DNA of 64,000 nt, from sequence record PV654397.1, one strand, 5' to 3'. A program made the translations under genes and the position numbers. Source of the stretch: Escherichia phage WPEC5. Positions 1-27,820 of this stretch are shown here, piece after piece (position 1 is the first letter of the stretch; each line of letters begins with the position of its first letter). The notes beneath the pieces were generated by a model. The model was given only the letters and a program-made list of their open reading frames with translations, did not search any database and had not been told where the DNA came from.

Positions 1-152
1 AGGTTACCCGCCCTTTAGCCCCCTACGCATTTTGCCATAGTCCAATCCCTTTTTATTCATAAAAGTCAAGGGATTACCTATGCATTTTTTTAACGCTGAA
101 GTTTAAAAATGCCTTGACTTTTTTATGATTCAGTACTAAATCCCTTTACGCA

Positions 153-362
153 TTAATCCTTCGTTACGCTTACGATTATCTGTGTATCCCCATAGTCCTG
201 CCATACTTCCACGCCAGCCGTCGCCCTGGTTAGTCGTGCTGTCATCTGCTTAATGGTCTTAGGCTTTAGTGGAACCTGTTGCAGTACTGTACGCATAGTA
301 TCATCGACGTTATCGTGTACGCCTGCAATAGTGCCTAGGACGCTGTATACTGTATAGAACAT
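153..362 (-). CDS. hypothetical protein (69 aa)
   Basis: ORF with GGAGGG SD ~7 nt upstream of ATG; small hairpin GGCCGC..GCGGCC just upstream. Confidence 0.45.
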   Translation of the reverse strand: MFYTVYSVLGTIAGVHDNVDDTMRTVLQQVPLKPKTIKQMTARLTRATAGVEVWQDYGDTQIIVSVTKD

Positions 363-430
363 ATGTATGCCCTCCTGATATAGTTAAGGCCGCTACAAGG
401 CGGCCTATGATGTTTGGTGATGTGTAACGC

Positions 431-832
431 TTACAGTCCTAAGATAGTGCGTGCTTCGTTACGTTCCGTGCACAGCTGCATGATGTGAGCAAGTAAGTCC
501 TTGCTAATGTATCCGGTGTTCATAGCTTCACGAATAGATACATCATAAGCACCGAACCCCGTGCGAACGATACGCACATCATTCAGGTTAGTATTATAGA
601 TACCGCCGAGATCAACGGCTTCGAATACTACATCAACAGAATATTCATTGTTGCCATCGTGGAAGTTTTCCAGTGCAATAGTATTGGATACCGCCCAACG
701 TTTGCAGTTTCCAATGATGCGGCACTGTTCCGGTTGGATAGTGCCATTACTTACAGCGTACTCCAGTGCATCTTTACCAAAAGTCCGAGCCAGTACTAAA
801 ACGTCAGCGAAGGAAGTGATTGAGAAGGTCAT
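431..832 (-). CDS. hypothetical protein (133 aa)
   Basis: ORF; start trimmed from 895 (inside -10 box) to ATG 832; type-A promoter, leader hairpin and AAGGAG SD upstream. Confidence 0.6.
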   Translation of the reverse strand: MTFSITSFADVLVLARTFGKDALEYAVSNGTIQPEQCRIIGNCKRWAVSNTIALENFHDGNNEYSVDVVFEAVDLGGIYNTNLNDVRIVRTGFGAYDVSIREAMNTGYISKDLLAHIMQLCTERNEARTILGL

Positions 833-920
833 GATAAAACTCCTTAATTTAGGAGGGAGAACCATTTCCCCCTCTCTATGTAAAACATTATACATGAATC
901 TAAGTACTATGCAAGTACTA
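833..920 (-). promoter_or_regulatory. type-A promoter with leader hairpin (representative)
   Basis: Minus strand: TTGCAT-N16-TATAAT-GTTTTACAT, then hairpin GGGGGAAATGGTTCTCCC, AAGGAG SD, ATG; same architecture before >30 genes in 1-20 kb. Confidence 0.6.
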
Positions 921-1253
921 TTTCATTTTAATACCTGGATTCAGGTAACGGTGAGAGCCGTATTCTGGAGAGGTTTCGGTCCAGTACAGTAAATCGATAG
1001 TCCCTTTAGCGTTAATCTTATCTACCAGCTTATTCATCTTAGCGTATACTACATCAGCATCGATGCGTTTAAAGCCAGTAGCTTTAGTGAAGTAGTAATG
1101 ATTTACTTCGCTATCGTTAAGGATATACCGAGAACCGTCAGCCGTTTGTGCGACAATGAATGAGAATGATACTTTACGATCAAGGCCGTCGCAGTATACA
1201 GATGAATCATTGGTACGGATGAAAGCTTTAACGATATCGATTGAAGTACTCAT
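918..1253 (-). CDS. hypothetical protein (111 aa)
   Basis: ORF; TTGACA-N17-AATAAT promoter and AGGAG SD upstream. Confidence 0.6.
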   Translation of the reverse strand: MSTSIDIVKAFIRTNDSSVYCDGLDRKVSFSFIVAQTADGSRYILNDSEVNHYYFTKATGFKRIDADVVYAKMNKLVDKINAKGTIDLLYWTETSPEYGSHRYLNPGIKMK

Positions 1254-1455
1254 GGTGAATCTCCTAACTTTGTGGGCCGTCGCACCGTTGCCGCCCTACG
1301 AGATACATTATTGCAGTACTGATATACTTTGTCAATACTTTTTTATTAATAGTTTTAGTTCCACCAGCAGATAGTTACTCACCGTTATTAACTATATATT
1401 TTGGATACACCTATGCACCCTGTGGGCTAGTTTTTGTCTATGCGTATATAATAGC

Positions 1456-1490
1456 AAAGGGACTGACCGGAGTCAATCCCTTTTTTTATT
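1456..1490 (-). terminator. rho-independent terminator (module copy 1)
   Basis: Minus-strand hairpin AGGGAUUGAC-UCCG-GUCAGUCCCU, U-rich tail; plus strand would have a C-A mismatch. Confidence 0.55.
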
Positions 1491-1499
1491 CTTTTTTTG

Positions 1500-1700
1500 T
1501 TAGATGATTCTCCAATCATCAACGATCATGGTAAGATACCGAACCAGTGATTCGAGTGATTCGTGTTCTCGATAGTCTGCCGCTCCACCAGCGGTACAAG
1601 TACAGCCGATTAAGCCGTTTTGTAGTTCCTGGATCTTTACGTCGATCTGGTTGGCTTTAGCTTCTTTCAGTACTTCAACCAGGGCGATAGCGATAGACAT
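1500..1700 (-). CDS. hypothetical protein (66 aa)
   Basis: ORF; type-A promoter, leader hairpin GCGGGGGAA..TTCTCCCGC and GGAG SD upstream. Confidence 0.6.
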   Translation of the reverse strand: MSIAIALVEVLKEAKANQIDVKIQELQNGLIGCTCTAGGAADYREHESLESLVRYLTMIVDDWRII

Positions 1701-1790
1701 AATGTTTTACTCCAAACTATTGGCGGGAGAACTATTCCCCCGCTCTATGTAAAACATTATACATTACTGGTTAGTACTGTCAAATAGTTT
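1701..1790 (-). promoter_or_regulatory. type-A promoter with leader hairpin
   Basis: TTGACA-N16-TATAAT-GTTTTACAT, hairpin GCGGGGGAA..TTCTCCCGC, GGAG SD. Confidence 0.6.
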
Positions 1791-25930: not shown

Positions 25931-25941
25931 ATAGTACTCTT

Positions 25942-26127
25942 TTAGAACTTAAAGATGAGGTTCATGATAGATAAGTACTTAGTTTCAGGAAATTGATGTT
26001 CTATTGCATAACGTGTCTCCAGTCTGAAGTCAAATTTATAAAAGGGACTATTCATATCCATAGGTTCATTGGGAAATGAATCTCTGTATTGTTTGTGCAG
26101 CTTACTACAGTAGAATTCTTTATACAT
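25942..26127 (-). CDS. small-protein tandem family member (61 aa)
   Basis: ORF; MYKEFYCSKL ... MNLIFKF. Confidence 0.5.
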   Translation of the reverse strand: MYKEFYCSKLHKQYRDSFPNEPMDMNSPFYKFDFRLETRYAIEHQFPETKYLSIMNLIFKF

Positions 26128-26128
26128 A

Positions 26129-26341
26129 TTAGTGCTCGATTAAAAGGGTTAGGATGTAATAGTATTGCATACTTTCTACCCCTTGTACAGCATTTCTTAT
26201 TTTATTATTCCTGTACGAGTTCAAGAGTTTAGGACAATGTTTGAAGTTTATATAATTATTTTGTGTATACAGTAGGCTTTCTCGTAGACCTTTTGTTGGT
26301 AGTGCATCAATGTAGTACTGTTCAATGTTCATAGTGTTCAT
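26129..26341 (-). CDS. small-protein tandem family member (70 aa)
   Basis: ORF; MNTMNIEQYYIDALP ... ILTLLIEH. Confidence 0.5.
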   Translation of the reverse strand: MNTMNIEQYYIDALPTKGLRESLLYTQNNYINFKHCPKLLNSYRNNKIRNAVQGVESMQYYYILTLLIEH

Positions 26342-26565
26342 AGAGCTACCAGTACTAAGATTTTTGATAATTGTTTATTGCTATTCCCGCAGATGTTGCT
26401 GTGTAAAATACTCACTACAAGGGTATCAAGTGCATTGTTCAGCATAAGGTTACATCCAGTACTGTTATGTGTTTTTAGCTCAATTAGCCACGAACTATCC
26501 GCGAGAAACTTCGCGTACTCTAGTTCATTTAGAGTATTAATGTAGTACTTAAGTGTAGTTGTCAT
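26338..26565 (-). CDS. first gene of small-protein operon (75 aa)
   Basis: ORF; AAGGAG SD and promoter TTGACA-N18-TACTAT directly upstream. Confidence 0.5.
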   Translation of the reverse strand: MTTTLKYYINTLNELEYAKFLADSSWLIELKTHNSTGCNLMLNNALDTLVVSILHSNICGNSNKQLSKILVLVAL

Positions 26566-26590
26566 GTGTAGTTCTCCTTATATTCCTTCT

Positions 26591-26620
26591 ATAGTACACC
26601 AGTACTGAAAGGATGTCAAG
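26591..26620 (-). promoter_or_regulatory. promoter of small-paralog operon
   Basis: Minus strand TTGACA-N18-TACTAT then AAGGAG SD and ATG 26565. Confidence 0.55.
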
Positions 26621-26644
26621 GGTTTTGTTTATGGGGTATAAATA

Positions 26645-26653
26645 TGATATAAT
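26645..26653 (+). promoter_or_regulatory. extended -10 promoter of first RCC1-family gene
   Basis: TGATATAAT 18 nt upstream of ATG 26672; divergent from the operon promoter. Confidence 0.5.
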
Positions 26654-26671
26654 GAATAAAGGAGAAGAAAT

Positions 26672-27820
26672 ATGTTACCTTTTGTTAGAATGTTTGATTA
26701 TGGGAATGAAGCACCTACCAACTCTGGGCGTTTTAAAATATATTCCAGTGATTCTATGTATCTTCATGATACTTATACTGACAAGTTGTATGCATCTTCT
26801 GCGACGAATTGGGGTACTGGTACAGGTGTAGCATCGAGTAAATTTATTCTTTGTGCGGAGAATGTTAAACGAGTTCTATTGGAAGATAACAGTAGTGATT
26901 GTCAATTGTATGAAGAGAAAGGTACTGGAAAAGTTTTTATCACTGGTAACACGAAGGCATTCACTGGTGTAACTGATAGAAAAACTTTGTGGACGGACTG
27001 TACTACGTGGATAACATCAAGTGGTATTAATGTTTCTGATATAAAATACATGAGTAGTTTTTATGATATGAAGGTGAATTTGATAACAAACGATGGTACA
27101 TTGTATTGTTGTGGAGCTAACAATATATCGAACATATCATCATTTGGTGATGGCACAAACATTAATTCTTTTAACACATTCAAAAGAGTAGATACTATAA
27201 CTTCGGTTAAAAAGGCAGTTGGTAACATTTATTTGCGAGAAGATAATACTTTATGGGGTTGTGGTTTTAACTATTACTACCAGTTGGGCACGGGTAATCA
27301 AACTTCTATTACTGGGGTGACGATGATTTCTTCGGATGTTATAGATTTTAATGTAAGTTATCAGAGTACATTTTTTATCAAATCGGATAATAATTTGTAC
27401 GCTTGTGGTAAACAGTTCGGTGCACAATATGGGAACGAATTTGGTACAGGTGGTACTTCCTCTTCTACTGATATACAATATAAAACTCCCACATTATTGA
27501 GTGCAGGTGTTTATAGTTTATATACTTGTGTTGGTAACATGGCATCACATATAGTTAAAGGTGATGAAGTACTTTATGCATCTGGAAGCAACTCGTCTGG
27601 TCAATTAGGTGTTGGTAATAATAATAATCAGTACTCCTATACTCCTTCATATACTTCGTTTAATACCTCTTGTAATTTGGTACGCACCCCATCTGGTTCA
27701 CTTATACTTACTGATACTGGAAAATTATATTATTGTGGCCTTGCAATAGTAGTAATGGGTGGTATTTCTGGACAGAACGTTCTTAATTATACAGAAGTCG
27801 ATATGTCATTTTTGCAGTAA
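26672..27820 (+). CDS. RCC1-like beta-propeller repeat protein, leader family member 1 (382 aa)
   Basis: Leader MLPFVRMFDYGN; repeated blade motifs (GxNxxxQLGxG, e.g. GFNYYYQLGTGNQT, GSNSSGQLGVGNNN); extended -10 TGATATAAT and AGGAG SD. Confidence 0.8.
   Translation: MLPFVRMFDYGNEAPTNSGRFKIYSSDSMYLHDTYTDKLYASSATNWGTGTGVASSKFILCAENVKRVLLEDNSSDCQLYEEKGTGKVFITGNTKAFTGVTDRKTLWTDCTTWITSSGINVSDIKYMSSFYDMKVNLITNDGTLYCCGANNISNISSFGDGTNINSFNTFKRVDTITSVKKAVGNIYLREDNTLWGCGFNYYYQLGTGNQTSITGVTMISSDVIDFNVSYQSTFFIKSDNNLYACGKQFGAQYGNEFGTGGTSSSTDIQYKTPTLLSAGVYSLYTCVGNMASHIVKGDEVLYASGSNSSGQLGVGNNNNQYSYTPSYTSFNTSCNLVRTPSGSLILTDTGKLYYCGLAIVVMGGISGQNVLNYTEVDMSFLQ

Follow-up and report, generated by a model that had tools for sequence, protein, structure and literature searches.

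The subject of this study is a 64,000-nucleotide stretch of Escherichia phage WPEC5 (sequence record PV654397.1), referred to as the window, which contains 273 exact copies of the palindromic hexamer AGTACT where 22.1 would be expected (standard deviation 4.7, maximum 34, in 100 dinucleotide-preserving shuffles). On balance, we lean towards the view that AGTACT is the core of a dyad-symmetric site in duplex DNA, which is read by a protein encoded by this clade of giant phages and is kept as a chromosome-wide self mark. The reading by a protein, and its effect, we infer from the enrichment, symmetry, conservation, clade distribution and placements of the sites, all of which were observed directly.

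1..64000, no strand: AGTACT field, 273 copies, from counts and shuffles.

AGTACT has the highest z-score of any hexamer in the window and is its sole over-represented 6-bp palindrome. Markov models of order 1 and order 2 give observed-to-expected ratios of 12 and 5.7, respectively; the order-4 ratio of 1.2 carries no information, since AGTAC and GTACT, the pentamers concerned, mostly sit within the hexamer itself. Of 602 GTAC tetramers in the window, 273 have the A...T flanks. The original prediction had estimated by eye about 5-6 copies per kb over the first ~27 kb, with ~19 copies in positions 1-3000. Exact counting gave 179 copies in 1-27000 (6.6/kb) and 21 in 1-3000, so that the estimate was sound and even understated, as was its view that the word exceeds what base composition predicts. 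The prediction also described the word as rarer further on. The fall in density is real (94 copies in 27001-64000, or 2.5/kb), but a restriction to the first 27 kb did not stand, as this remainder still has ~7 times the expected number and the trait is genome-wide and clade-wide. The hexamer is frequently extended, as had been noted, and 61 of the 273 copies read CAGTACTG. The flanks show a weak symmetric bias to TTnCAGTACTGnAA, with G depleted at -1 (down to 5-7%) and C depleted at +1, giving TTCAGTACTGAA as the consensus of the site in the window. Genome-wide, the spacing between copies is close to Poisson apart from two peaks, at 10-11 and 20-22 bp, which are caused by promoters and arrays.

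By megablast the window belongs to Asteriusvirus, the ~350-kb Escherichia coli jumbo phages 121Q, PBECO4 and fEgEco12, within the RaK2-like group. Phage fEgEco12 has direct terminal repeats of 20,993 bp, confirmed by PhageTerm and restriction digests, and ten ordinary enzymes digest its DNA in the predicted way (PMC13070987). Nucleotide 1 of fEgEco12, its physical left end, aligns to window position 21662 on the minus strand, and nucleotide 20,993, the end of the repeat, aligns to window base 1. From both of these anchors, window positions 1-21662 therefore represent one complete terminal repeat and, with a physical genome end at 21662, the source record evidently starts from a chromosome end. 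The zone of dense AGTACT corresponds to this 21.7-kb repeat plus the neighbouring 5 kb. The window divides as follows.

1..21662, minus strand: terminal repeat with early small genes, fEgEco12 ends aligned; 138 AGTACT, 6.4/kb.
21663..26640, minus strand: operon of ~20 small paralogous genes (59-77 amino acids), ending at the genome terminus; 41 AGTACT, 8.2/kb.
26641..44910, plus strand: RCC1-like paralog array; 47 AGTACT (2.6/kb), 35 coding and 12 in short spacers.
44911..64000, minus strand: ordinary gene block; 47 AGTACT (2.5/kb), 42 coding, in three frames, at the genome baseline density.

Under a simple gene model, 172 copies (63%) lie in open reading frames (ORFs), occupying all three frames, while 99 are intergenic and 3 lie across gene edges. 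The presence of copies inside coding sequence had been predicted. The coding copies were compared with shuffles of synonymous codons within each gene, which preserve both protein and codon usage, and with shuffles of codon order.

Terminal repeat and adjacent operon: 95 coding AGTACT observed; 24.7 ± 4.0 (maximum 38) by synonymous shuffle; 8.1 by codon-order shuffle.
RCC1-like array: 35 observed; 15.9 by synonymous shuffle; 11.2 by codon-order shuffle.
Positions 44.9-64 kb: 42 observed; 11.9 by synonymous shuffle; 6.4 by codon-order shuffle.

The sites are also conserved. Over 45 kb aligned to 121Q at 88% identity, 182 of 227 alignable sites (80%) are intact in 121Q; the corresponding retention is 55% over all hexamers and 59% over those located no more than 30 bp from a site. 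When only coding sequence is considered, retention is 74% for AGTACT against 52% for the control. The excess of ~4-fold over synonymous shuffles, the dyad-symmetric flanks and this retention support the proposal that the enrichment reflects selection. When coding copies are read in sense orientation, the flank preferences on the two sides are mirror images, and because the flanks are symmetric in this orientation the recognition target points to duplex DNA, not RNA. Explanations at the level of RNA are disfavoured by the same symmetry, and no Rfam family or tRNA was found in the window.

The enrichment is a property of a group of phages and is accompanied by the disappearance of GCGC. The window contains no GCGC (52 expected), and 23 GC-rich 6-bp palindromes have no copies at all. 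Counts in other genomes are listed below as observed versus expected.

121Q, first 200 kb: AGTACT 590 vs 56; GCGC 0 vs 101.
Klebsiella RaK2-like phage, complete (347.5 kb): AGTACT 945 vs 80; GCGC 0 vs 131.
RaK2, 21 kb: AGTACT 50 vs 4.6.
Metagenomic relative of 366 kb, 21.6 kb: AGTACT 36 vs 6.7; GCGC 0 vs 22.
Cronobacter phage GAP32, 25 kb: AGTACT 53 vs 6.1; GCGC 0 vs 27.
Erwinia Eneladusvirus, 50 kb: AGTACT 245 vs 14.7; GCGC 0 vs 39.
Xanthomonas phage XaC1, 20 kb: AGTACT 67 vs 7.5; GCGC 0 vs 9.
Pseudomonas phage PA5oct, 25 kb: AGTACT 1 vs 7.8; GCGC 20 vs 24.
rV5-like coliphage C3, complete: AGTACT 2 vs 45; GCGC 142 vs 144.
T7, complete: AGTACT 4 vs 13; GCGC 103 vs 108.
E. coli K-12, 50 kb: AGTACT 3 vs 4.8.

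Zero GCGC accompanies AGTACT enrichment in every lineage examined, and GCGC is normal in PA5oct, C3 and T7. In the Klebsiella phage genome AGTACT ranks first for over-representation among all 4096 hexamers, and every 5-kb bin of 121Q is enriched, with the peak in the terminal repeat. Enriched phages infect Escherichia, Klebsiella, Cronobacter, Pectobacterium, Erwinia and Xanthomonas; PA5oct, a related phage of Pseudomonas, is depleted, and the enrichment is absent from nine more distant relatives identified by their large terminase (43-45% identity). Since both Enterobacterales and Xanthomonas phages show the trait, its selective agent is expected to be phage-encoded and not supplied by the hosts. 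In Eneladusvirus and XaC1 the core hexamer is the same, although the preferred 8-mer is AAGTACTT (51 vs 1.6 expected) and not CAGTACTG, which may reflect co-evolution with a diverged reader. The phage carries 2.5-8 copies per kb, compared with 0.06/kb in the E. coli K-12 sample (one of 50 kb), 0.1/kb in T7 and 0.014/kb in C3. Its own DNA is ~40-100 times denser in AGTACT than this host sample, the pattern expected of a self tag like the DNA uptake sequences.

C3 is an rV5-like Justusliebigvirus, deposited as 'Campylobacter phage C3'. Both of its AGTACT copies sit in a 3.5-kb segment held in common with the early cassettes of Asteriusvirus, in which several other AGTACT positions are mutated. 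This shared block (window 9864-10407 and 17425-20094; C3 4253-7721) covers ~3.5 kb at 70-96% nucleotide identity, and the resemblance indicates that early cassettes have been exchanged horizontally between unrelated coliphages.

The word takes fixed positions at early promoters. Strict promoter-like sites were defined as TTGNNN-N16-18-TATAAT, and AGTACT starts at -39 or -19 in many of them.

Window: 40 promoter-like sites; AGTACT at -39 in 15 (AGTAC-TTGCAA) and at -19 in 13 (AGTACTG-TATAAT).
121Q, 250 kb: 54 promoter-like sites; AGTACT at -39 in 12 and at -19 in 16.
Klebsiella phage: 53 promoter-like sites; AGTACT at -39 in 6 and at -19 in 12.

These two registers are separated by 20 bp, and both are within the RNA-polymerase footprint of early sigma-70 promoters. 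The 15 window sites at -39 bear out the prediction that AGTACT adjoins -35 elements. Some promoters bracket the -35 hexamer by two AGTACT 11 bp apart. The original prediction was also correct in placing the word in the stems of terminators in the RCC1-like array, where ~10 spacers (28998-44928) have stems of the form GCCAGTACT..(A/G)TACTGGC. Examples are as follows.

16911..16936, minus strand: early sigma-70 promoter with both registers; the copy at 16931-16936 overlaps the first T of the -35 TTGCAA and that at 16911-16916 abuts G-TATAAT.
903..919, minus strand: early promoter with AGTACT on either side of the -35 (AGTAC-TTGCAT-AGTACT, 11-bp spacing).
31444..31457, plus strand: terminator between RCC1 paralogs with AGTACT in both stem arms (gccAGTACTtgAGTACTggc followed by a T-run).

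A role purely as a sigma-70 promoter element was ruled out, as 63% of copies are in genes and coding and non-coding densities are alike outside the repeat. In view of these even densities, a regulator's binding site, one of the options originally suggested, is too narrow an account if a regulator alone is meant.

The terminal repeat holds ~75 small minus-strand genes, most of them with their own sigma-70 promoter, a GC hairpin in the 5'-leader and a Shine-Dalgarno sequence. Positions 1-21000 (minus strand) contain ~40-50 paralogous early cassettes, laid out as an A-tract, a -35 (TTGCAA or TTGACA), N16, TATAAT, gttttacat, a 5'-leader GC hairpin (e.g. GGGGAGAAATGATTCTCCCC) and a Shine-Dalgarno sequence. 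The promoter-early stem-loop (PeSL) modules known from T4-type phages are similar, except that the hairpin here is downstream of the promoter. One hairpin, GGGATTGACTCCGGTCAGTCCC, is present in three identical copies (1459-1480, 3719-3740 and 6997-7018, minus strand), with a diverged fourth near 11031. Its loop side carries a TTGACT -35, followed by TATTAT and ~70 nt of conserved sequence with neither ORF nor ribosome-binding site. These units may be small RNA genes or terminator-promoter modules; Rfam gives no match to them.

A second specialised placement is found at the genome end, linking the word to the packaging signal that was among the options originally proposed.

20100..21960, no strand: the only long ORF-free stretch of the window, with the physical end at 21662, direct repeats of iteron-like type and 13 TCAGTACTGA sites, most of them full-length.
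21684..21710, no strand: two TTCAGTACTG sites whose starts are 21 bp apart, the nearer one ending 21 nt outside the first base of the repeat.

A third AGTACT lies outside the genome end at 21755-21760, 50 bp further out, and fEgEco12 has the same layout of a TTCAGTACTG pair just outside the first base of its repeat. Pectobacterium phage CBB, whose repeat was annotated independently, has four sites in the 120 bp beyond the boundary; the spacing of the last two is again 21 bp, and the final one ends 17 nt before the boundary. At the homologous place in the Klebsiella phage, where the genome end was positioned by homology, five tandem ATTCAGTACT units with a 10-bp period are followed by 12 nt and then by the conserved junction GATATGCCACTA/AGT. 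The junction sequence CCRCTA/ (the stroke marks the junction) is common to Asteriusvirus, the Klebsiella phage and CBB. A cluster of hexamers beside the genome end, as in the pac site of phage P1, is thus found in all three, on one side only. On the far side of the repeat there are no AGTACT in the first 1.5 kb of fEgEco12 (20,994-22,500), and the repeat boundary is therefore a sharp boundary in density; 121Q has 5 copies in the 5 kb at 155-160 kb. The stretch just past the repeat is occupied by another tandem gene family, of ~65 amino acids.

The iteron-like repeats comprise five TAGCC(G/A)T... units at 8-32 bp spacing, plus four or five ACGCCCAAAATTCA (20772-20880 and 20373-20944). This region resembles an origin or the repeat-rich injection-stop region of the T5 terminal repeat. 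Near the predicted end of the Klebsiella phage (31020-31350) there are ~six GATAATGATTCTCATT, resembling the enterobacterial Fur box GATAATGATAATCATTATC.

Taken as a protein-read self mark, AGTACT would be recognised by a symmetric DNA-binding or DNA-modifying protein encoded by the phages themselves, in a clade that would include Asteriusvirus, the RaK2-like phages, Mimasvirus, Eneladusvirus and Xanthomonas phage XaC1. Selection keeps about one site per 150-400 bp over the whole chromosome, in genes and between them, against about one per 17 kb in the host sample, keeping the frequency at 10-20 times chance along the whole chromosome of this giant-phage group. On top of this background, placement is specialised. 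The sites are 2-3 times denser in the terminal repeat, the home of the early genes, and occupancy or modification at -39 and -19 would alter the use of early promoters. The end-proximal pair or array is found 12-21 nt beyond the left physical end of the genome, where it would act for the machinery by which the chromosome end is recognised and cut.

The reading could take two forms. In one, a clade-specific Dam-family methyltransferase would methylate the site or its GTAC core, and packaging or regulatory proteins would then read the methylated site; in the other, the site would be bound directly, with no methylation. We regard the odds between the two as about even. A modification motif, another of the options in the original prediction, is thus plausible. 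Relatives encode a C5 methylase (PF00145) and a small divergent Dam-family adenine methylase (PF05869; gp417 of 121Q), homologues of which would be the writer in the first form. The gp417 family is clade-specific, with at least 42% identity among Asteriusvirus, RaK2-like, Salmonella Munch-like, Eneladusvirus and XaC1 phages; the nearest outsider has 47% identity and the GATC Dams of Shiga toxin (Stx) phages ~32%. Judged by this distribution, the Dam-family enzyme appears to be a better candidate writer than the C5 enzyme. The latter is unlikely as the AGTACT writer, as a homologue (51% identity) is present in C3, which avoids AGTACT.

Several points weigh against the self-mark explanation. It is hard to see why a phage that has terminal repeats and is cut at a specific site should need 1000 dispersed copies. 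The last AGTACT is not at a constant distance from the genome end (12, 17 and 21 nt), and the array is one-sided, the other (right) boundary of the repeat having no AGTACT within 130 bp. The promoter registers could in part reflect common descent of duplicated promoter cassettes and not independent selection. As to the proteins, bisulfite data from RaK2 revealed only CpG methylation (PMC3622015), on which the C5 methylase of the clade appears to act and which further weakens that enzyme as a writer. The best 60 matches to gp417 include none from GAP32 or CBB, both of which are AGTACT-enriched; CBB is reported to have adenine methylases. There is no solved homologue of gp417. A Pfam scan of ten early ORFs returned only a ParE-like domain and sub-threshold matches, with no reader among them, and the two genes that precede the large terminase matched, in PHROGs, uncharacterised families specific to the clade, again with no reader among them.

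Among other explanations, we think it unlikely that the sites are a functionless by-product, in which methyl-directed repair of the very-short-patch kind, or a similar mutation bias, turns near-matches into AGTACT, as proposed for HIP1, a cyanobacterial highly iterated palindrome (HIP). The HIP precedent (PMC4390886) and the orphan methyltransferases of these phages speak for it, and a restoring drive would also yield apparent conservation of sites. Outside the terminal repeat of the Klebsiella phage, 680 copies are spread at nearly equal densities of 2.27/kb in coding and 2.60/kb in non-coding sequence, again as a drive would have it. The exact palindrome is far over expectation throughout, in the window, in the Klebsiella phage genome and in every 5-kb bin, and its near-matches deviate mostly at the first or last position, as with HIP1, AGTACA being the commonest replacement in 121Q. 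Against a masked background, however, the exact hexamer is enriched 14-fold, and depletion affects none of its one-mismatch neighbours in the window or in the Klebsiella phage genome. Each of them reaches or exceeds its expected frequency, at 1.4-4.4 times (2.3-4.4 for outer and 1.4-2.2 for inner positions). Lost sites show no excess of C-to-T products. Repair drive also leaves unaccounted for the 2-3-fold concentration in the terminal repeat (5.1/kb coding and 13.4/kb non-coding in the Klebsiella phage), the fixed promoter registers, the 10-bp tandem array, the placement at the end and the absence of sites in the 1.5 kb past the repeat.

We give a similarly low probability to AGTACT being a site of cleavage or nicking by a phage endonuclease, the breaks stimulating recombination of the terminal repeats, recombination-dependent replication or clamp loading for late transcription. 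The strict hexamer is like the site of a type II enzyme, density peaks in the terminal repeats, which must recombine, and the phage has T4-type recombination and replication genes together with several HNH endonucleases. The early region is also highly mosaic among relatives. But when breakpoints of homology with 121Q and Turkey5 were located, 6.8% fell within 3 bp of an AGTACT against 3.9% of random positions (n=74), a difference that is not significant, and the recombination signal put forward in the original prediction was not supported. No ScaI-like enzyme is annotated in the relatives examined, self-cleavage at ~1000 sites would demand tight limits, and phased arrays and promoter registers would be unexpected. 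A polar signal of the Chi or KOPS kind was ruled out, the word and its flanks being palindromic.

It is very improbable that repeated promoter and terminator cassettes, together with codon or dipeptide habits, explain the word by themselves. The word is on 27 of the 40 strict promoters and ~10 RCC1 terminators, the cassettes are paralogous, mobile and shared even with an rV5-like phage, and 26 of the 35 coding copies in the RCC1-like array are in frame as the Ser-Thr codons AGT-ACT of paralogs. The original prediction held that it would fall if such cassettes accounted for all copies. They do not: the 172 copies in ORFs, in three frames, refute this reading, coding copies reach 3.5-4 times the synonymous shuffles even in the non-early 44.9-64 kb, and the 680 copies outside the Klebsiella repeat are as dense in coding as in non-coding sequence.

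No more probable is an anti-restriction decoy, in which the mass of sites saturates or misleads a host restriction enzyme specific for AGTACT. The strong avoidance of AGTACT by other coliphages suggests real pressure from enzymes that cut it, and the target of ScaI and Eco255I is the identical word, strict in all six bases. Here the sign is reversed, and the 12-17-fold over-representation rules out a restriction target under ordinary avoidance. Extra sites normally mean extra cuts, the same phage follows the usual avoidance logic in fully removing GCGC and 23 other palindromes, and a decoy leaves the phased arrays and promoter registers unexplained.

A host-protein site that the phage titrates or exploits, such as that of SlmA or half-sites of TrpR or LexA, is scarcely credible: the enriched phages do mostly infect Enterobacterales, and AGTACT is at the centre of the SlmA-binding sequence, the 12-bp palindrome GTGAGTACTCAC with outer GT..AC, but sites with at most 3 flank mismatches are fewer than expected (22 vs 36 in the window, 53 vs 90 in 121Q and 71 vs 113 in the Klebsiella phage), the same three contain 0, 1 and 3 copies of GTNAGTACTNAC, the depletion of G at -1 goes against such a site, and the Xanthomonas phage is equally enriched, which argues against any enteric-specific factor. 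As to TrpR, one paper contains TTCAGTACTGAA, but only as wrong motif-finder output for that protein.

The blocks in which the sites lie have features of their own. An 84-amino-acid early protein (4946-5197, minus strand) matches the ParE-like toxin domain PF24732 (E=6e-11). The genes in 21965-26565 (minus strand) are ~20 tandem paralogs of 59-77 amino acids with an N-terminal M-N-x-x-E-[YF]-Y and a hydrophobic C-terminus, packed tightly and lacking individual promoters. On the plus strand, 26672-44893 holds fifteen tandem paralogs of ~380 amino acids, RCC1-like (regulator of chromosome condensation) by the annotation of relatives, interrupted by a single minus-strand gene (43041-43691).

The AGTACT phenomenon most resembles two known systems, the HIPs of cyanobacteria and DNA uptake sequences. 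HIP1 (GCGATCGC) and the alternate HIPs are likewise exact short palindromes in many-fold excess genome-wide, in coding and non-coding sequence, conserved within clades, with near-matches mostly at the outer positions and orphan methyltransferases in the genome; HIPs co-occur with their cognate orphan methyltransferases (Elhai 2015, PMC4390886). AGTACT differs in being viral and an A+T-rich 6-mer, in having only a candidate cognate methyltransferase and in its undepleted near-matches, and it adds the terminal-repeat concentration, the fixed promoter registers and the genome-end array. The uptake sequences of Neisseria and Pasteurellaceae (DNA uptake sequences and uptake signal sequences) are also dispersed self tags, at ~1-3 per kb and far rarer in foreign DNA, tolerated in genes, forming inverted pairs in terminator stems and spaced roughly at random. 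They are asymmetric, 9-12 bases long and recognised by the cellular competence machinery, whereas AGTACT is a palindrome of lytic phages and might serve packaging. AGTACT is distinct from both systems in being viral, with end-proximal arrays and fixed promoter registers.

The GATC sites of E. coli, read by Dam and SeqA, are similar in that a palindrome recurs every few hundred bp, is clustered in a regulatory, origin-like non-coding region, lies inside some promoters and forms pairs one or two helical turns apart. GATC is not over-represented in E. coli, however, and no analogue of SeqA or MutH was found in the phage. In the pac site of P1, 7 hexamers flank the cut on both sides, with no genome-wide enrichment; Sternberg and Coulby reportedly found that these Dam hexamers flank the terminase cut and that their methylation is required for cleavage. 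P1 pac thus resembles the present case in its cluster of methylatable, palindrome-like hexamers by a chromosome-end cut and in a Dam-family methylase of the phage's own, but the AGTACT array is one-sided and belongs to phages with fixed terminal repeats and not to headful packaging from pac. Dispersed phage operators are known as the stoperators of mycobacteriophage L5, the C1 operators of P1 and the TF1 sites at early promoters of SPO1. Like AGTACT they are scattered, including within genes, and overlap early promoters, but they number in the tens and are usually asymmetric and oriented with transcription, against ~1000 palindromic copies at an even coding and non-coding density.

Given the co-occurrence of HIPs with methylases and the P1 pac precedent, the methylated form of the self mark is an attractive possibility. 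Tentatively, and with more doubt than we attach to a protein-read site as such, these phages may hold a viral counterpart of HIPs: an ancient clade of ~350-kb jumbo phages, whose hosts range from Enterobacterales to Xanthomonas, with ~1000 AGTACT as an epigenetic or protein-read self mark and with GCGC purged, the mark being used for end recognition and packaging and for the timing of early transcription out of the terminal repeat. Full-text searches of open literature, and the RaK2, CBB, PA5oct, Sharanji and fEgEco12 papers, yielded no reference to AGTACT or to an over-represented palindrome; subscription papers (e.g. the GAP32 genome) are outside this scope.

Phages normally delete short palindromes as a response to restriction, and one that is kept at 12-17 times chance points to a strong and conserved function, as yet undescribed, in a widespread group that includes therapy candidates against E. 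coli, Klebsiella and Erwinia. Experimental handles are available in the 12-bp probe TTCAGTACTGAA, the candidate methyltransferase and a mapped genome end with an adjacent array. The combination of high AGTACT density and zero GCGC is, in addition, a very simple signature of the clade for metagenomes. If AGTACT is a true self mark that serves packaging or temporal control, it would help explain how jumbo phages with unmodified DNA discriminate their own chromosome from that of the host, and how the gene-dense terminal repeat is regulated; for viruses whose DNA is unmodified, this would be a new principle by which self is told from non-self DNA.

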